Shown here in pieces: positions 2,471 through 33,348 of a stretch of 33,398 nucleotides of DNA. The notes beneath the pieces are model-generated. The model worked only from the letters and a program-made list of their open reading frames with translations, was not told where the DNA came from and made no database searches. Position 1 is the stretch's first letter, and every line of letters begins with the position of its first letter. Source of the DNA: a virus; the UHGV virus genome UHGV-0115916. One strand, 5' to 3'. The translations under genes and the position numbers were made by a program.

Positions 2471-3973
<1,503 letters not shown>

Positions 3974-4006
3974 GAAAAGGGGCATTTTAAGCCCCTTTAT
4001 TTTTTT
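3974..4006 (+). terminator. Intrinsic terminator after the endolysin gene
   Basis: 8-bp stem AAAGGGGC (3976-3983) / GCCCCTTT (3991-3998), 7-nt loop, then ATTTTTTTC; overlaps the 3' end of the convergent ORF 3987..4262. Confidence 0.55.
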
Positions 4007-4262
4007 CAAGAATCGCTAATACGCGTTCTAATTTCACATCAACAATATGAATTTTAGAGCTTAGATCTTTAAGGCTACTCTCTAAATCATCTTGCCCTTT
4101 CTCCAGTCTCGCTACATCAGTTTTAACGTGTGTTAAATCTGATTCTAATTTAGCTAAACGAGAAGAAAGATCTTCTACATCGGCGGTTTTATCACGGAAT
4201 ATACTCCATAAAAAACCACCTGCGGCAATTACCACCGCTGCGATACTCTCCCATCCTGTCAT
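3987..4262 (-). CDS. Type-II membrane protein with coiled-coil domain (i-spanin-like or lysis accessory protein)
   Basis: 91 aa; N-terminal hydrophobic helix IAAVVIAAGGFLWSIF followed by heptad-like charged repeats (LAKLESDLTHVKTDVARLEKGQDDLESSLKDL); no o-spanin partner identified. Confidence 0.45.
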   Translation of the reverse strand: MTGWESIAAVVIAAGGFLWSIFRDKTADVEDLSSRLAKLESDLTHVKTDVARLEKGQDDLESSLKDLSSKIHIVDVKLERVLAILEKNKGA

Positions 4263-24041: not shown

Positions 24042-24980
24042 ATGAAACACATAATCCAAACCAGAAGTGTTTTTAAGGATATCGAAGACTCTTTATTTAG
24101 TGAGTTGCATTCAGCTAAGACAAGTATCAAAATCTGTGTTGCATGGATAAACTTTGAGCTTTTTGAAAATATATTATTATCTAAGGCTAAAGAAGGTGTT
24201 GAAGTTGAGATATTAGTTAATAATGATTATATCAATACAAAATTTCTTGATAAAATATCTGATAATATAAAACCATTAATTAATCTAATTAAAAACCCTA
24301 TTAGTAACCACTTAATGCATCATAAATTTTGTATCATTGATGATGAAGTTTTGATTACTGGCAGTTATAATTGGTCAAAAAGAGCACCATATCATTATGA
24401 AAATATAATAATCATCCGTAATGATTTCAATCTAATAATGCAATTTAAACATGAGTTTGCAGATTTAAAATACATGGGTGCAATGCCAAGTACAGAATTT
24501 AATGCATTTAAAGTAACCAAAAATCTCAATAGATTTGTTGTTGGCACATATAGTTCATCTGTGGGGATATATGAAACCGTCACATTGCAGTTATGGGAAA
24601 TTGATATTAACAACTTAACTTTTGAACGACATGGCGAAATGGATATCCCTTTCTTCAATTATTTATTAGATATTAATACTGATGATCATTATCTTATTGA
24701 TGAAAAAGAAAGGTACATCGATCTATATGATCAAGAGCGTAGACAGATGGAGACTATCCAAAGTCATTTTAGAAGATTAAATTGTTCAATTCATGCTTAT
24801 GGAACAGCAATAATAGCGAACGAGAGCGAATACCTTGAAGGTTATGAAGAGCCTATTCGTGTAATTCACTTCAATTGGATAGATATGCGATTAAGCAAAG
24901 TATTACCCTCTTCTTTGCCCGCAACTATGGAACTTGAAGGATTATGGCACGAAATATATGCTCCAAATGGATATATTTAA
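24042..24980 (+). CDS. Phospholipase-D-family (single HKD motif) nuclease with uncharacterised C-terminal domain
   Basis: 312 aa; exact H-x-K-x4-D-x6-G-S-x-N motif at aa 93-110 (HHKFCIIDDEVLITGSYN); AAGGA RBS 6 nt before the ATG; AT-rich gene. Confidence 0.8.
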   Translation: MKHIIQTRSVFKDIEDSLFSELHSAKTSIKICVAWINFELFENILLSKAKEGVEVEILVNNDYINTKFLDKISDNIKPLINLIKNPISNHLMHHKFCIIDDEVLITGSYNWSKRAPYHYENIIIIRNDFNLIMQFKHEFADLKYMGAMPSTEFNAFKVTKNLNRFVVGTYSSSVGIYETVTLQLWEIDINNLTFERHGEMDIPFFNYLLDINTDDHYLIDEKERYIDLYDQERRQMETIQSHFRRLNCSIHAYGTAIIANESEYLEGYEEPIRVIHFNWIDMRLSKVLPSSLPATMELEGLWHEIYAPNGYI

Positions 24981-25012
24981 ATAATATTCTATAATTAATG
25001 AGGAACGGTATT

Positions 25013-25372
25013 ATGTCTAATTATCCTATACCACTTAGCCTTGAATTTAATAGTCAAGATACTGCTAATATCATTTGTAGTTATCTAGAAAAAAATCATC
25101 AAGATTCTATTTTAAAAACCATATTAAATATAGATTTGTCTTTTATTGATTATCGTGCACAATCTTCTAATTACTTTATAATTAATGACGTTGAATATAT
25201 TGGAGATAATAATTATATTTTATATTATAAAATAAACTACTACATTTATAATCTCTGTAAAGATATGGATATTGATGATGACTACGAGACTTCGATAAAT
25301 TTTACATTGAATAATGGATTTTTAGTATTTGATATAATTGATTGTGAAAGAAATATATCAGATGAAATATAG
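25013..25372 (+). CDS. Hypothetical acidic small protein, partner of the PLD-family nuclease
   Basis: 120 aa from ATG 25013 (GAGGA RBS 8 nt upstream; the track start 24998 lacks an RBS); Asp/Glu-rich (DMDIDDDYE, DIIDCERNISDEI); 32 nt downstream of the nuclease gene. Confidence 0.5.
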   Translation: MSNYPIPLSLEFNSQDTANIICSYLEKNHQDSILKTILNIDLSFIDYRAQSSNYFIINDVEYIGDNNYILYYKINYYIYNLCKDMDIDDDYETSINFTLNNGFLVFDIIDCERNISDEI

Positions 25373-25436
25373 CCATATTTAATTATCACTTAAGGATTTC
25401 AACATCAGGATTTAAATTTTAATTATATATAATAGT

Positions 25437-25468
25437 AAAAGCCTAATACTCATCAGTAATAGGCTTTT
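25437..25468. terminator. Bidirectional terminator hairpin between convergent accessory operons
   Basis: 9-bp stem AAAAGCCTA (25437-25445) / TAGGCTTTT (25460-25468) with a 14-nt loop; A/T-rich flanks. Confidence 0.5.
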
Positions 25469-25475
25469 ACCTAAA

Positions 25476-25895
25476 TTATAATTGATTCAATCGATAGATA
25501 TTAGATGTACTTGAGCCATCGCTATACACCTCTGATATAGTCAGTTTGTTTCCATCCACTTTGTATTTTACTACACTATCAGCCGGATCATTTCTCCAAC
25601 GACCTGAGCTATCTGGATTGTTTGATGCCCACATAACTTGATCATCAATCAGTTTGCACTTGATAGCCCATCTTGTGCTGTCATCTTTACGTATGTAATG
25701 GACATAGGCTACATCAGATTGAATCTTATCAAGCTTCATTATTTTATGATCTCGCCCAAACATAGATGCAGCCGCCGCTTTGCAGATCTGACCAACATTA
25801 GCTTCCGCTGCGTAGAGTGAAGAACTGAACAATAATGGCACAATCACTAATAACTTTATCATCGCATATCGTCTCGTAGTAAAAATTAATTTCAC
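25476..25895 (-). CDS. Exported (signal-peptide) protein of unknown function
   Basis: 139 aa; GTG start at 25895 with AAGGA RBS; N-terminus MKLIFTTRRYAMIKLLVIVPLLFSSSLYA-AEA is a classical signal peptide; 1-nt gap to the upstream HNH gene. Confidence 0.6.
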   Translation of the reverse strand: MKLIFTTRRYAMIKLLVIVPLLFSSSLYAAEANVGQICKAAAASMFGRDHKIMKLDKIQSDVAYVHYIRKDDSTRWAIKCKLIDDQVMWASNNPDSSGRWRNDPADSVVKYKVDGNKLTISEVYSDGSSTSNIYRLNQL

Positions 25896-25896
25896 C

Positions 25897-26622
25897 TTAT
25901 TTCCTTAATAACTTTTTTAATTCCTCAACTGTCTTCATTTCTTTTCCAATATGAATCATTGCATGACAGTTTGCACATAAAGGTATAAGATCTTCAATTG
26001 GGTCAATCTTATAGCGTTTACCAATAGTATGTAGTGGCACTATATGATGAACATGAATATAATTTTTTCCGTGACTTCCATACACTTCTTCAAAATTAAA
26101 ACCACAGACACCACAACTCAAACCATGTTTATCGATACATTCTTTTCTAGCCTTTGGATCTCTCTCATAGTACGTAGCAATCCTTTGATGCTTTTCACCT
26201 TCATAGTATTCACTTTCTATTTCAGGTGTGAATGAATAGTAATCTTCATCGGTGGCATACCAATCTCCATCTTTTTTAGTAAGATATTTTCGTACTATTT
26301 TCTTTTCAAAATGTTTAATCCTAGCAGCACCATTTTCAGTTGTTTTCTCATGCCTAGTCTGGCTAAAGGTGAAAAGACTATACCCTTCATGTAAAATTTT
26401 ATCTATGTGTTCGATAGATTGTGTATAACCATTTTTTTTGTGTCCATTTACATTTTCACGCCAACTGCTAGCCAAGATTAAAACTTTCTTACCATCATCT
26501 GATCTAAGATCTTCCCAAGCTCCAAAAATTATTTTTTTGTTGATCTCATCAATAAATGACCAACTCCAGTTATCATTTTTACATGTAGCACCCAAAGAAC
26601 GCATGAACTCTGTTCGGGACAT
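25897..26622 (-). CDS. HNH nuclease (restriction / McrA-like) with N-terminal domain of unknown function
   Basis: 241 aa; C-terminal HNH motif CGVCGFNFEEVYGSHGKNYIHVHHIVPLHTIG ... LIPLCANCHAMIH; AAGGA RBS; N-terminal ~150 aa Trp-rich domain not identified. Confidence 0.75.
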   Translation of the reverse strand: MSRTEFMRSLGATCKNDNWSWSFIDEINKKIIFGAWEDLRSDDGKKVLILASSWRENVNGHKKNGYTQSIEHIDKILHEGYSLFTFSQTRHEKTTENGAARIKHFEKKIVRKYLTKKDGDWYATDEDYYSFTPEIESEYYEGEKHQRIATYYERDPKARKECIDKHGLSCGVCGFNFEEVYGSHGKNYIHVHHIVPLHTIGKRYKIDPIEDLIPLCANCHAMIHIGKEMKTVEELKKLLRK

Positions 26623-26659
26623 TTTTCATCCTTAAAATATGTGACCTACATCACATGAA

Positions 26660-26742
26660 ACTATCGACTGTAGGAGGTTTCTATCCTTCGTAAAGCTAAC
26701 AAACCTACCCAAAGTAGATAGAAACCTCCTACAATCGATAGT
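26660..26742. repeat. 26-bp near-perfect inverted repeat between divergent operons (candidate operator or RNA structure)
   Basis: Left arm ACTATCGACTGTAGGAGGTTTCTATC (26660-26685), right arm GATAGAAACCTCCTACAATCGATAGT (26717-26742); 25 of 26 positions complementary; 31-bp spacer. Confidence 0.7.
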
Positions 26743-26802
26743 GTATGTGTGTTCCTTTTGATGGTAAAGTATTAATATAGTGTTACCTAGACTGGGTGTA
26801 CA

Positions 26803-26808
26803 TATAAT
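26803..26808 (+). promoter_or_regulatory. Candidate -10 element (TATAAT) for the membrane-protein operon
   Basis: Perfect TATAAT 18 nt upstream of ATG 26826; no convincing -35 found, and the region is so AT-rich that this is weak evidence. Confidence 0.25.
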
Positions 26809-26825
26809 CAATATTTGGGTTTGAT

Positions 26826-27536
26826 ATGCTTAATCTCACTAAATGTAATTTACTTTTGATCGGCACTGTAATAACTCTATTACTGATAGCTATTCTTGTA
26901 GGTATAAAAATACTATTCTCCGATTCTAATCCAGATCTAGGCAGCTTAGCAGATTGGATCAGTTCTGTATCCGCAATAGGGACTCTTGGTGTTGCCTGGT
27001 TAGCTTATAGTAAAGCTGATGACTACATTGACAAAAAAGCTTCGGAAAGAGGAATTGATATCCTTGTCAATATGGTAACTGAATCATTCGTTGCTTATTT
27101 CAACTCACTAAATGAAACTAATTTCCATGCTTCAAAACTTGAAAATAAAATGATATTGATTGGCTTGGTTGATGAAAAAGTAGATTGCAATATTGAACTA
27201 CAATCATTAAGAGAAAAAATCATAACTCTCTTCGAAAATAGTCATCAAATAGACAAAGATTTTATAAAAATGAAAATAATGAAAATATCAAAACCCAGTG
27301 ATATTTTCTACGATCCAGTAACTAGCGATGATACATTGCAAGCGTTAAAATTAGCATTTCATAAACTGAACACTGAAATTTGTGAGAATGAAAATCAATA
27401 CAACATTAATAATGATTTACTTAGCGAAAATATCAACTTTATTAAAAACACTACCGAAAAGTTAGCCCATGATATTCGCAAACAGTTCTTTACCTCGCCG
27501 AATACTTATAAAGATTATTTTGGAAATCTGTCTTAA
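26826..27536 (+). CDS. Signal-anchored membrane protein (paralogue of the 1056..1796 product)
   Basis: 236 aa; N-terminal helix LLLIGTVITLLLIAILVGIKILF, DLGSLADWISS motif, second hydrophobic stretch, then a ~170-aa soluble domain. Confidence 0.6.
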   Translation: MLNLTKCNLLLIGTVITLLLIAILVGIKILFSDSNPDLGSLADWISSVSAIGTLGVAWLAYSKADDYIDKKASERGIDILVNMVTESFVAYFNSLNETNFHASKLENKMILIGLVDEKVDCNIELQSLREKIITLFENSHQIDKDFIKMKIMKISKPSDIFYDPVTSDDTLQALKLAFHKLNTEICENENQYNINNDLLSENINFIKNTTEKLAHDIRKQFFTSPNTYKDYFGNLS

Positions 27537-27581
27537 ATTATACGCTATCAAATATTCCATCAACATAAACAAGGAAAGTAG

Positions 27582-28280
27582 ATGACTACTCTCACTAGAA
27601 CTTATAATTTACCAAATGAGCTAGTTGAACATTTTTCAAATAACATTGTCTATTTCGAAAAACTTTTGTCTAAGGATTTTTCTGACTTAAATGTTAATGT
27701 AGCACCAGAAGACATTAAGAAAATAGAAAAATCTTTCGAAGTATCACATAGAATACGTGATTTCGAAATCAATCTGTATTGGCAAAGACTGAACTTCCTT
27801 TGGGCCATTACAGCATTGCTATTTGCTGGATGGGGAACATTGATCTTTAAAATCATCGAATTCAATGGAGGGGAAGCACCTTATATTATATTTGCCGCCT
27901 TATCATTTCTCTCACTTATAGGTGGGATTGTAACTATATTCACAAGCTTTATCATTGAGGCAGGTAAGCATTGGCAAAAGGTTTGGGAGTTTCATGTTCA
28001 CGCTCTTGAACCTTTTGTATCAGGTCATTTATATGCAATTCAGTTTTCTTATAAAAATAAAAAAAAGGCATCTATAAGTAGAAGCGTAGAAACTTTCAAT
28101 TATGCTTTGCTGTTTCTTTGGGCATGTTCAGCAGTATTCGCCGCAATCATCCCTTCACAAATAGGGAACGGTCTTGCAGGCATTATCCAATTAGTTATTT
28201 CTCTTCTTATAGTTGGTGCTTTTGTTTATATACGCAACTCTGTTACTAAAAAGGAGTCTATTAAAATTCAGCTTGATTAA
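27582..28280 (+). CDS. Integral membrane protein with about four predicted helices
   Basis: 232 aa; ~70-aa soluble N-terminus, then hydrophobic segments (LNFLWAITALLFAGWGTLIF; YIIFAALSFLSLIGGIVTIFTSFII; ALLFLWACSAVFAAIIP; LAGIIQLVISLLIVGAFVYI); AAGGAAAG RBS; 45 nt downstream of the 26826..27536 gene. Confidence 0.6.
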   Translation: MTTLTRTYNLPNELVEHFSNNIVYFEKLLSKDFSDLNVNVAPEDIKKIEKSFEVSHRIRDFEINLYWQRLNFLWAITALLFAGWGTLIFKIIEFNGGEAPYIIFAALSFLSLIGGIVTIFTSFIIEAGKHWQKVWEFHVHALEPFVSGHLYAIQFSYKNKKKASISRSVETFNYALLFLWACSAVFAAIIPSQIGNGLAGIIQLVISLLIVGAFVYIRNSVTKKESIKIQLD

Positions 28281-28300: not shown

Positions 28301-28510
28301 TTAAGCAGCCCCATAATGGGGCTTTCTTTTTTTAGCATTTACTTTTTGAATGCTCATAAGAATCTCACGTACCTTTGCTTCATTATCACCTGCATCATAT
28401 AGTACCCCATCTTTCCAGTACTGACCCAGTAGTTCTACTTTTGGTAAGCCCGGCATTGCCCTTACTCCATCTTCGTGATCAATATGTAATTCAAGTGATC
28501 CAATAATCAT
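28301..28510 (-). CDS. Hypothetical small protein
   Basis: 69-aa ORF; start overlaps the upstream ORF by 4 nt (ATGA-type coupling); 3' end overlaps the terminator hairpin. Confidence 0.4.
   Translation of the reverse strand: MIIGSLELHIDHEDGVRAMPGLPKVELLGQYWKDGVLYDAGDNEAKVREILMSIQKVNAKKRKPHYGAA
28307..28333 (+). terminator. Intrinsic terminator of the plus-strand membrane-protein operon
   Basis: 7-bp stem AGCCCCA (28307-28313) / TGGGGCT (28317-28323), 3-nt loop, then TTCTTTTTTTT. Confidence 0.65.
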
Positions 28511-31449: not shown

Positions 31450-33348
31450 CTAGATCTGGTCTATCCGATAACGCTCTATGAACTCTTTACGTGTTAAACC
31501 AGTCGATTCTAATGCAGTGGCTATATCCTTTGGAACTCGACCATTCAAGGCAATACTATATGTATTGCCTTCATACACAATGTCTACTCGATCATACTTT
31601 CCGGTATTAGGCCAGAATGAAGCCCCACTTATTTCACTATAACCAACCACTTCTAACATCTCATTAGCAGTATTGAACAGATCTAAATAACTTTGTTCAA
31701 TTTTATCAAGTTGTTCCACTGCTTTATTAAATAATGGCAGATTGCTAGTGGTAAGAAATCCTTCATCTCTGATACTTACATTATCAACAGAAGAAAATTC
31801 AACTTTAAACGCCCAATGTGGTTTTCTATCAGTTCCACCAAAAACTAACCATTCATCTTTAAAATGATACTTTATTTTTATCGTTATACACCCATCAGTT
31901 TTATCAACTATAACACTTTCAATAATAGAACTAATTACTTTCCTTATTTTATTTCTATCCGTATCCTGCATATTTGTAAAAACCGCCCACTGAATAAGAA
32001 TCATAAATTCATTTATATCGACTTCTAGAGATCCTTTACCTTTCAGTGAATATAAGCGTTCTTTTAACTTATCAACTTCCAGAACAGTCTTTTTACGTTC
32101 CATATCAAACGCATTTAGTTGAACTGCTAACGCACTAACATTAGGAGCAATTGCTATTGCTTGAGCCATGTTTGTTATGCGAGATTCCAGATCAGTTATC
32201 AACGTTTCTTTTCTACTGAGGTCTTCTTCTATCACAGTTGTGTCAATACCATCTTTTAGTCTCTTATTCATGTAACCGATCAGTAGTGAAATGATCGTAC
32301 AGTGTTCAACTAATTGTGCTGATATAGACCAGCCAGAACAGTTTTTTTGTAAGTGAACCCCATTAGTACAAATATAGCGAGCACTGCCATGATTCATGAA
32401 AGAATGCATAGTTCCTCCACACTTGCTACACCGTAACACCTGCAACCCTGATAACAATTTAATTTCTTCTACTTTGTCTTTCTTAGCCTTGAAGTTGTTT
32501 TGCTGCTTACGTTCAGCCAAGGTTAAATACTCTGCTTCATCTTTGCATAACCATGGATAGTAGTTATCAAGTTTGTAAGTAGCACCACCAGCATTGATAG
32601 TCCTTTCACCAATCAACGCCCGATTATCACGCATCTTTTTCAATACCTGATAATCCCATTCTTTACCCTTTAAACCATTAGGATATTTTTTATCGAGATG
32701 ACGCTTTACTGTATAGATGCCATTCCCATCTAAAAACATGTCTATAGCTTCGCGAGCGATACTCCAGTAAACGGGATGTTCTTTTACTGCTTCATATTGC
32801 GAACCTGAATCATCTATCCAAAATGGATGGCGACCAACTGACTTAATGTTTACTGGCAACCCTGCTTTATGACGTTCGACCAAGGCAACAACATTGCCTA
32901 TGGTCCTGTTAGATTTCGTTTCTGATTCTTCATTGCCACGGATAAACATCAGAATAGAAATCATCAGATCAGTAGGGTTTTGTCTGATGGATTCTCTGTT
33001 ATAGACCTTCCGATCCATTCCTGTGACAATCGTTAGCCCTAAACCAATCAATTCAAGGAATAAACGAAGTGCTTCATCCACCTGATCGCGTGATAGTCGG
33101 TCGAGGTTTTCACAGTAAAGCCAAGAGTCAGACGGTATAGCATTATTTTTTACGGCGTCTATGAAGTCACCCAACTTACCCGCCCTATTTTTTCCCCTGT
33201 AAGCACTCGTGCCAGGTTCCAAAATTTCAACCATTTCAAGCCCCGCTTCTTCAGCATAGGCTTTCGCTGCCGCTACCTGCCTGTTCTTGGTTGTTCCTTT
33301 TTCTTGGCGATCACTTGACCACCTGATATAGCTATAAAGTTGCGGCAT
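31450..33348 (-). CDS. Large serine recombinase (phage integrase)
   Basis: 632 aa; N-terminal resolvase-type catalytic domain (YIRWSSDRQ with the serine nucleophile; ...RLSRD...), recombinase domain, Cys-rich zinc-ribbon segment (CSKCGG...C...C) and long C-terminal coiled-coil-like region. Confidence 0.85.
   Translation of the reverse strand: MPQLYSYIRWSSDRQEKGTTKNRQVAAAKAYAEEAGLEMVEILEPGTSAYRGKNRAGKLGDFIDAVKNNAIPSDSWLYCENLDRLSRDQVDEALRLFLELIGLGLTIVTGMDRKVYNRESIRQNPTDLMISILMFIRGNEESETKSNRTIGNVVALVERHKAGLPVNIKSVGRHPFWIDDSGSQYEAVKEHPVYWSIAREAIDMFLDGNGIYTVKRHLDKKYPNGLKGKEWDYQVLKKMRDNRALIGERTINAGGATYKLDNYYPWLCKDEAEYLTLAERKQQNNFKAKKDKVEEIKLLSGLQVLRCSKCGGTMHSFMNHGSARYICTNGVHLQKNCSGWSISAQLVEHCTIISLLIGYMNKRLKDGIDTTVIEEDLSRKETLITDLESRITNMAQAIAIAPNVSALAVQLNAFDMERKKTVLEVDKLKERLYSLKGKGSLEVDINEFMILIQWAVFTNMQDTDRNKIRKVISSIIESVIVDKTDGCITIKIKYHFKDEWLVFGGTDRKPHWAFKVEFSSVDNVSIRDEGFLTTSNLPLFNKAVEQLDKIEQSYLDLFNTANEMLEVVGYSEISGASFWPNTGKYDRVDIVYEGNTYSIALNGRVPKDIATALESTGLTRKEFIERYRIDQI

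Follow-up and report, generated by a model that had tools for sequence, protein, structure and literature searches.

What does a temperate phage gain from two small membrane protein genes that it carries on the strand opposite to both flanking phage operons? This question is raised by positions 26826 to 28280 of the UHGV virus genome UHGV-0115916, a stretch of 33,398 nucleotides (in the following called the window) that represents a temperate siphovirus-like prophage. A preliminary description of this DNA had delimited two genes here, separated by 45 nt, and had read them as a sensor with a soluble domain followed by a membrane effector, in the manner of abortive-infection or exclusion modules. 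Both open reading frames (ORFs) are found with exactly these limits and at this distance from each other. Their main features are as follows (TM, transmembrane; KD, Kyte–Doolittle hydropathy):

26826-27536, + strand: gene 1 (236 aa, ATG start), founder of the G1 family
26850-26906, within gene 1: TM1, residues 9-27, strong (mean KD 3.0)
26934-27008, within gene 1: conserved hairpin helix, residues 37-61, DLGSLADWISSVSAIGTLGVAWLAY
27009-27533, within gene 1: hypervariable four-helix-bundle domain, residues ~62-236
27582-28280, + strand: gene 2 (232 aa, ATG start), Pfam PF24838 (8xMP)

The answer that we favour, and to which we give about an even chance of being right, is that this cassette protects the lysogen against other phages. 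It would be a defence cassette expressed in the lysogen, in which the 8xMP protein serves as oligomeric membrane effector or hub and the part of sensor or adaptor falls to the interchangeable G1. In the following the evidence for this answer is laid out together with the explanations that compete with it.

The preliminary description had assigned neither protein to a family, and for gene 2 this has to be revised. Its product matches Pfam family PF24838 with 61.1 bits (gathering cut-off 30; E = 1.3e-16) over residues 51-187, corresponding to positions 3-134 of the 136 in the profile. The same profile is matched by all 66 diverse relatives, and each of the 22 close homologues was already annotated as PF24838; homologues of gene 2 span identities from 93% down to 42%. 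An exhaustive profile search collected 1,719 8xMP representatives at 50% identity (E <= 1e-3), most of them stand-alone proteins of 210-260 aa. Two members, P0047 and P0050 (461-478 aa), carry long uncharacterised C-terminal extensions. The family assignment as such is ordinary, but the modular partnering of 8xMP proteins outlined below appears to be undescribed.

A soluble N-terminus followed by about four TM helices had been claimed for gene 2, and here hydropathy and the AlphaFold2 (AF2) model agree. Hydropathy places TM1-4 at residues 70-88, 102-120, 172-190 and 197-215, behind a soluble N-terminus of 69 aa, and the AF2 helices cover residues 42-93, 101-146, 165-194 and 197-222. The short loops contain no lysine or arginine, whereas the long loop (residues 126-170) contains seven. 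From hydropathy and the positive-inside rule both termini are predicted to lie inside (N-in/C-in), with residues 1-69 and the 45-aa loop between TM2 and TM3 in the cytoplasm. This predicted topology agrees with the 8xMP pattern, in which the protein crosses the inner membrane several times and has its N-terminal and inter-TM domains in the cytoplasm. The family is marked by two juxtamembrane motifs, HRIRDFEIxLYWQR and AGKHWQxVWExH..LEPFVSG, and the nearly invariant residues (R59, F61, E62, I63, W67, R69, W74, G114, W131, W135, E136, L142, E143, G148, S164 and W180) are concentrated where TM1 and TM2 extend into the cytoplasm. Judging from the family annotation, 8xMP probably assembles as a homo-oligomer (octamer). 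No solved structure is related to gene 2 by sequence (searched as single protein or as profile against PDB) or by fold.

For gene 1 the lack of a family assignment stands in the libraries searched: its sequence has no match in Pfam, PHROGs, PADLOC, NCBIfam or PDB, and word-indexed searches return 'hypothetical proteins' only. Its homologues show 98, 88 and 53% identity, and about 45 distant relatives are added by profile. This profile, a hidden Markov model of the first 80 residues of gene 1 that was iterated over the ORFs of the fetched loci, recovered 49 ORFs. The resulting G1 family is apparently undescribed, as are its arrays and fusions. Its members share a layout of an N-terminal TM helix (absent in some), a short acidic loop, a conserved helix rich in small residues and a helical domain of ~150 aa. 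The helix with the motif G-[SN]-x-[SA]-D-W-x-S...A-x-Y-x-A..A-K-x-W is the hairpin helix of gene 1 and the best-conserved part of the family, with G39, D43, S46, A57 and A64 nearly invariant. The segment DLGSLADWISS, which had been singled out as conserved, indeed lies in this part and starts a weaker second hydrophobic helix of gene 1 (residues 41-59, KD 1.3). The helical domain retains faint motifs only, namely L..L..GW.L in its middle and F..[YF]F at the C-terminus. Gene 1 itself, which seeds the profile, combines the N-terminal TM helix, the conserved helix, the helical C-domain and a nearby 8xMP gene. A comparison of 35 G1 members with PADLOC-DB v2.0.0 gave two isolated matches only (E > 0.003).

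An N-terminal anchor had been proposed for gene 1 and is present at residues 9-27. The term signal-anchored is imprecise, since a TM hairpin with a cytoplasmic four-helix bundle is more likely than a simple signal anchor with an external domain. In the AF2 model the soluble domain is a four-helix bundle, which would be a common sensor or adaptor fold, and it is placed in the cytoplasm because of the positive-inside rule and the architecture of two natural fusions.

These fusions belong to a wider pattern of linkage between both families. Among the 48 non-fused G1 ORFs, 45 lie at most 1.6 kb from an 8xMP gene (odds ratio 23, p ~1e-14, calculated over loci that partly depend on each other), and this linkage is kept from 100% down to ~27% 8xMP identity. 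Seen from the other side, only 19 of the 66 de-duplicated 8xMP genes adjoin a G1 gene and two more have one elsewhere in the locus; solitary-looking 8xMP genes are found in prophages and plasmids. The two genes had been presented as one module, and their co-conservation turns out to be asymmetric: G1 is nearly always accompanied by 8xMP, but 8xMP is often without G1. A G1 gene may precede or follow 8xMP and may be alone or part of an array of two to four; among the surveyed loci (cited by L numbers), L014 has three G1 genes upstream and L015 has two on either side. The 8xMP genes can also occur in tandem, as in L001:4479-6699 (paralogues 38% identical with a G1 gene between them) and in the Kluyvera loci L017:8-1781 and L021:5001-6774, where a copy of 232 aa is followed by one of 326 aa. 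Some 8xMP genes are preceded by a recurrent 66-aa ORF, which was considered as a further component and rejected, as it is an identical flank within one phage sub-lineage and not a general third component.

In-frame 8xMP-G1 fusions are found in L032:4983-6320 (445 aa) and in the Serratia loci L095 and L096 (463 aa; L095:5806-7197). In both fusions 8xMP and G1 are each present in full length; their 8xMP parts are nearly identical, but the G1 bundles differ, and their TM count fits the N-in hairpin topology. The same division is seen across the pairs in general, where the hairpin co-diverges with 8xMP and the bundle does not. Hairpin identity climbs with 8xMP identity from 32% to 50%, whereas bundle identity stays at 16-22% (shuffled background 13+-7%) even where the 8xMP proteins are 74% identical.

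On this basis a mechanism can be proposed for the defence cassette. Gene 2 would supply the constant part, a homo-oligomer in the inner membrane with four TM helices per protein and a conserved cytoplasmic juxtamembrane stalk, to which gene 1 would dock in the membrane via its conserved TM hairpin. The fast-evolving cytoplasmic bundle of G1 could either recognise a phage-derived cue or restrain the 8xMP complex. Once triggered, the 8xMP assembly would compromise the barrier or the energisation of the membrane and so abort the infection. In this scheme we infer that G1 physically interacts with 8xMP, that the oligomer acts as a pore or channel, that the bundle is the sensing part and that there is an anti-phage phenotype. 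We also put forward, with clearly less confidence and as a tentative proposal, a broader version in which 8xMP is a so far unrecognised oligomeric membrane hub effector of mobile-element immunity that interchangeable partners gate in trans. In one large temperate-phage lineage these partners would be G1 arrays whose sensors dock by way of the co-evolving hairpin and are each tuned to a different phage cue, so that one effector serves many sensors, and a hairpin upstream of the cassette (see below) would serve as regulatory or cassette-exchange element.

Tandem arrays of a protein with conserved N-module and variable C-domain recall polymorphic toxin loci as well, and one plasmid copy of 8xMP adjoins a DUF1778/GNAT toxin-antitoxin pair. 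The cassette might accordingly be read as a membrane toxin with its antidote, or as an addiction or competition module, in which one protein damages the membrane and the other neutralises it, to the benefit of prophage stability or in conflicts between bacteria. We consider this quite improbable. The G1 proteins have no secretion or delivery domain, their variable domain is predicted to stay in the cytoplasm of the producer, and none of 35 members examined matched a toxin domain. Moreover, the many solitary 8xMP genes are unexpected for an obligatory pair, and a toxin fused to its own antidote would be unusual, yet 8xMP-G1 fusions exist.

The genomic surroundings bear on the defence reading more directly. 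In nearly all loci with a linked G1 gene, a GpA-type large terminase (39-86% identity to that of the window) is encoded 2.5-3.5 kb away, and therefore the site can be regarded as a hypervariable cargo slot of one broad temperate-phage lineage. In other loci the genes beside 8xMP encode DRT2 (E = 5e-205), PDC-S19 (1e-130), PDC-S18 (2.5e-138) and an FRG/PDC-S15-like protein. In L030:3454-5819, and likewise in L036 and L037, a full-length DRT2 gene (PADLOC Drt2) stands directly upstream of and on the same strand as an extended 8xMP gene (307-328 aa) with a gap of 82-139 nt; this could be mere co-location, or the 8xMP protein could be an undescribed accessory of DRT2. In lambda-like prophages of Enterobacter (L003-L006, L022) a DUF2971 gene lies directly upstream of an 8xMP gene whose product is 63% identical to gene 2; this DUF2971 protein has no PADLOC match. 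Another partner of 8xMP is an AIG1/MMR_HSR1 GTPase. Genes for AbiJ, DndB and nSTAND proteins occur near 8xMP in other slots, and an island on a Raoultella plasmid surrounds it with RelA/SpoT-domain, YfbU, HNH and P-loop NTPase genes. Together with a PLD nuclease and an HNH protein resembling Type IV restriction enzymes in the window itself, these neighbours suggest, by association only, the signature of a defence island. The sensor and effector logic of the preliminary description thus fits the neighbourhood, the hypervariability, the linkage and the fusions. The abortive-infection or exclusion function that it attached to the pair is something we infer purely.

Two inner-membrane proteins, as predicted here, in a prophage cargo cassette might also act earlier in infection. 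A membrane complex of 8xMP and G1 could block DNA injection at the inner membrane, as P22 SieA, T4 Imm and HK97 gp15 do, and would leave the cell alive; a single prophage inner-membrane protein, P22 SieA, is reported to suffice for such exclusion (PMC10461980). The hypervariable domain could then track variable ejection or tape-measure proteins, and in lambda-like prophages insertions of 8xMP genes also separate tape-measure from minor-tail genes. For an interception from outside, however, the design would be odd, as the predictions put both the bundle and the conserved 8xMP motifs in the cytoplasm and leave only tiny periplasmic loops (8-11 residues); the alternative partners DUF2971 and the GTPase are soluble cytoplasmic proteins, too. 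We therefore rate exclusion at DNA entry as unlikely. Given the predicted cytoplasmic position of the variable domain, the solubility of the alternative partners and the neighbourhood, sensing in the cytoplasm is favoured over an external block.

Several observations speak against a lysogen-expressed defence cassette, and they deserve to be stated together. The surveyed loci were found via 8xMP and come mostly from one phage lineage, so that the counts are not independent. No G1 gene is present within 5 kb of 45 of the 66 de-duplicated 8xMP genes, some of which are apparently solitary; 8xMP does therefore not need G1, and the assignment of sensor and effector could be reversed or wrong. Conversely, the Serratia loci L092-L094 and L097/L098 have G1 pairs with no 8xMP gene within 5 kb. 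The AF2 models of both proteins are only moderately confident (predicted local distance difference test 70-71), and pore formation is without structural support because the fold matches are generic helical bundles. When 66 8xMP members were compared with PADLOC v2, isolated matches only were obtained (E >= 0.0067), none of them to gene 2 itself. Neighbouring defence genes are weak evidence in a prophage cargo slot, a kind of site that holds morons unrelated to defence as well. A literature search found no paper on PF24838 ('RipA' is swamped by RIPA lysis buffer, and '8XMP' is also a PDB code of CD163). Finally, homologues of gene 2 are named 'RipA family octameric membrane protein' in UniRef and NCBI, presumably after RipA of Francisella tularensis, whose published architecture matches gene 2 and which is associated with lipid A and not with immunity.

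This last point leads to another function. RipA of Francisella is described as a homo-oligomeric protein of the cytoplasmic membrane that has two cytoplasmic domains, both essential; its suppressors fall in lpxA and glmU, and it is linked to lipid A biosynthesis (PMC4322802). With gene 2 it shares the small size, the inner-membrane location and two cytoplasmic regions, a likeness drawn from the source names and the published description (PMC4322802). In analogy, 8xMP could modulate lipid A, lipopolysaccharide (LPS) or envelope biogenesis with G1 as membrane co-factor, and the benefit would come via a changed surface in the sense of lysogenic conversion. One 8xMP member, P0171 (489 aa), carries an N-terminal family-25 LPS glycosyltransferase fused to 8xMP, and this is the sole hint at the sequence level of an envelope or LPS role. 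Weak LptF/LptG matches within the 8xMP family stay below the cut-off. Moreover, the gene of Francisella RipA is chromosomal and has to do with the synthesis of lipid A and with growth inside cells, whereas gene 2 is prophage cargo with a dedicated variable partner. An envelope function also gives no account of the hypervariable G1 arrays, of the swapping of partners (DUF2971, GTPase) or of the placement among nucleases, DRT2 and PDC genes. Its probability appears low to us, similar to that of a block at DNA entry, but it has to be taken seriously as a rival.

If the cassette is indeed a defence system, it can be set beside three known ones. With RexAB of phage lambda and of Pseudomonas putida (PP_5643-5644, PMC12894663) it shares the organisation as a two-gene prophage operon expressed in the lysogen. 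Homology was looked for and rejected: hhalign gives the 8xMP profile a probability of 0.4% (E = 0.13) against RexB and the G1 profile 0.1% against RexA, and there is no Pfam RexB match. RexA is a soluble DNA-binding protein, G1 a predicted membrane-tethered four-helix bundle; unlike in RexAB, G1 occurs in arrays and fusions and 8xMP has alternative partners. The cassette may thus resemble RexAB in logic only. The SLATT/2TM effectors of CBASS, retrons, Pycsar and type III CRISPR systems likewise combine a constant helical membrane module with interchangeable upstream partners in defence islands, but the cassette has no enzyme that generates a nucleotide signal. Membership in SLATT was rejected, as SLATT_5 is found in gene 2 only (E = 0.025, 14.4 bits against a cut-off of 29.5) and in none of the other 65 members, and PADLOC matches of 8xMP members to TM effectors are isolated (E = 0.007-0.07). 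The third system is Aristaios (DUF2971), a validated single-gene abortive infection system of lactococcal plasmids (PMC11381338). In the Enterobacter loci DUF2971 occupies the position of G1, while the window itself has no DUF2971 gene. Because Aristaios works alone, the adjacency of DUF2971 and 8xMP may be a co-location and not a partnership.

The architecture of the cassette is that of a separate transcription unit with a conserved hairpin at its front. Its control elements are:

26660-26742, + strand: inverted repeat with 26-nt arms (26660-26685 and 26717-26742) and a 31-nt loop, at the 5' edge of the cassette
26762-26770, + strand: putative extended -10 (TGG TAAAGT), a by-eye reading of the alignment
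28307-28333, + strand: intrinsic terminator, stem AGCCCCATAATGGGGCT then TTCTTTTTTT

Between the genes lies a spacer of 45 nt (27537-27581) with a Shine-Dalgarno sequence AAGGA at 27571-27575, 6 nt ahead of the ATG of gene 2. No terminator separates the genes, and therefore they form an operon; on the other strand only small spurious ORFs overlap. The clean terminator noticed earlier was recovered as a stem of 7 bp with five G-C pairs (28307-28323) followed by TTCTTTTTTT. It falls inside the last codons (…KPHYGAA*) of a convergent 69-aa ORF (28301-28510, - strand), and therefore one hairpin may end both transcripts.

The inverted repeat lies 84 nt upstream of gene 1 and folds as RNA with -42.5 kcal/mol (z = -9.6). 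Its C/A-rich loop carries a conserved 15-mer, AACAAACCTACCCAA, at 26698-26712. Exactly the same 15-mer is present on the module strand in L001, L021, L038, L044 and L046/L047, 75-130 nt upstream of the first module gene (hairpin positions L001:4379, L021:4011, L038:4137, L044:3975 and 4895, L046:4797), in loci whose 8xMP proteins are only 28-80% identical. Six of the seven copies are flanked by complementary arms of unrelated sequence. About 20 nt downstream of the hairpin follows a block, TGGTAAAGTA, that is conserved in the window, L001, L038, L044b and L046. This conserved upstream hairpin appears to be undescribed; it might act as operator or insulator, mark a cassette boundary or work as an RNA element. 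A pairing of its loop with the ribosome-binding region of gene 1 was rejected, since complementarity is partial in the window and absent in the other loci, and a cos site is unlikely because the hairpin is 2.7 kb from terS in the window and at another distance in L001. The putative extended -10 would imply a transcription start near 26777 and a 5' untranslated region (UTR) of ~49 nt, as far as can be deduced from sequence; a consensus promoter scan did not call it, and a perfect TATAAT at 26803-26808 offers an alternative -10. If the extended -10 is read correctly, the hairpin lies just upstream of the cassette transcript. In the divergent HNH mRNA it would be part of the 5' UTR.

The cassette closes an island of 4.3 kb (24042-28280) between the small terminase gene and the early genes. 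The GC content of this island is ~29-35% (~31% in the cassette itself) against 37-40% in the structural genes. Further features of the window are:

24042-25372, + strand: PLD-family nuclease-like gene (312 aa; PLDc_2 5e-20) and, 17 nt on, a 124-aa ORF (phrog_13663)
25476-26622, - strand: HNH protein (241 aa) and, after 1 nt, a 139-aa ORF with a signal-peptide-like N-terminus
between 5488 and 23971, - strand: tail fibre J, tape measure, major head, portal, large and small terminase
31450-33348: large serine recombinase
1056-1796, - strand: second G1 paralogue (246 aa; DIGSLADWLSSIANIFMAFVAY), E = 2.4e-17 to the G1 N-terminal profile
3521-3973: lysis gene, endolysin-like
1857-2150 and 3987-4262: lysis genes, small TM ORFs

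The PLD gene shows weak similarity to MkoC/DpdK/DrmC/NucT and is, together with the 124-aa ORF, likely a separate defence candidate. A PLD homologue 48% identical to it sits in the same slot of L042. The C-terminus of the HNH protein matches the PADLOC model for Type IV methyl-directed restriction (E = 1.6e-9), and similar HNH genes (242 aa) adjoin the G1 pairs of Serratia L092-L098. The second G1 paralogue lies at the opposite end of the prophage, 26 kb away from the window's single 8xMP gene, and is flanked by a DNA methyltransferase-like ORF (50-763, GNPPF motif) and the small TM ORF at 1857-2150.

Among the genomes compared, the window is 98.7% identical over 11.8 kb of DNA to a chromosomal prophage of Pseudocitrobacter faecalis DSM 27453 (L016) and 97.6% identical to prophages in E. 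coli draft assemblies (L008-L013); the copies in L016 and L008 are essentially the same prophage as the window. Megablast with the window gave no match in 50,697 phage records (INPHARED) and none in 5,426 complete E. coli genomes, and a scan of genome_contigs with close-homologue patterns returned four loci only. In one E. coli copy an insertion sequence (IS) with a transposase of the DDE_Tnp_1 family (L009:3928-4896) separates the HNH gene from gene 1, having inserted ~100 nt ahead of the gene 1 start, and may have replaced or disrupted the cassette promoter. The loop 15-mer is kept there at 3807-3821, beyond the IS insertion.

Small multi-pass membrane proteins encoded by a phage also call holins and antiholins to mind, and the cassette does recur in one terminase lineage. 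A role in the life cycle of the phage itself, be it lysis timing, membrane remodelling or control of DNA exit, would nevertheless come as a surprise and is the least probable of the explanations considered here. A match to a virion or lysis family, which would have refuted the reading of the preliminary description, is given by neither protein: PHROGs (E <= 0.01) gives no match and Pfam no holin, spanin, endolysin or virion match. The lysis genes of the window are located elsewhere, and the cassette has the opposite strand and its own terminator. Its gene content varies among otherwise similar phages, and tblastn with gene 1 and gene 2 found no match in the 50,697 phage records.

As P. faecalis DSM 27453 is a public type strain, the cassette is directly testable. 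Even if 8xMP has an envelope role resembling that of RipA, the finding would be new, as prophages would then be shown to bring along envelope-biogenesis regulators that have hypervariable co-factors. If the cassette protects the lysogen, it would be a defence system with two uncharacterised components and would give a first biological role to PF24838, a large catalogued family with ~1,700 clusters at 50% identity. One membrane effector would then be coupled to arrays of fast-diversifying sensors, and this would bear on how the specificity of immunity is broadened.

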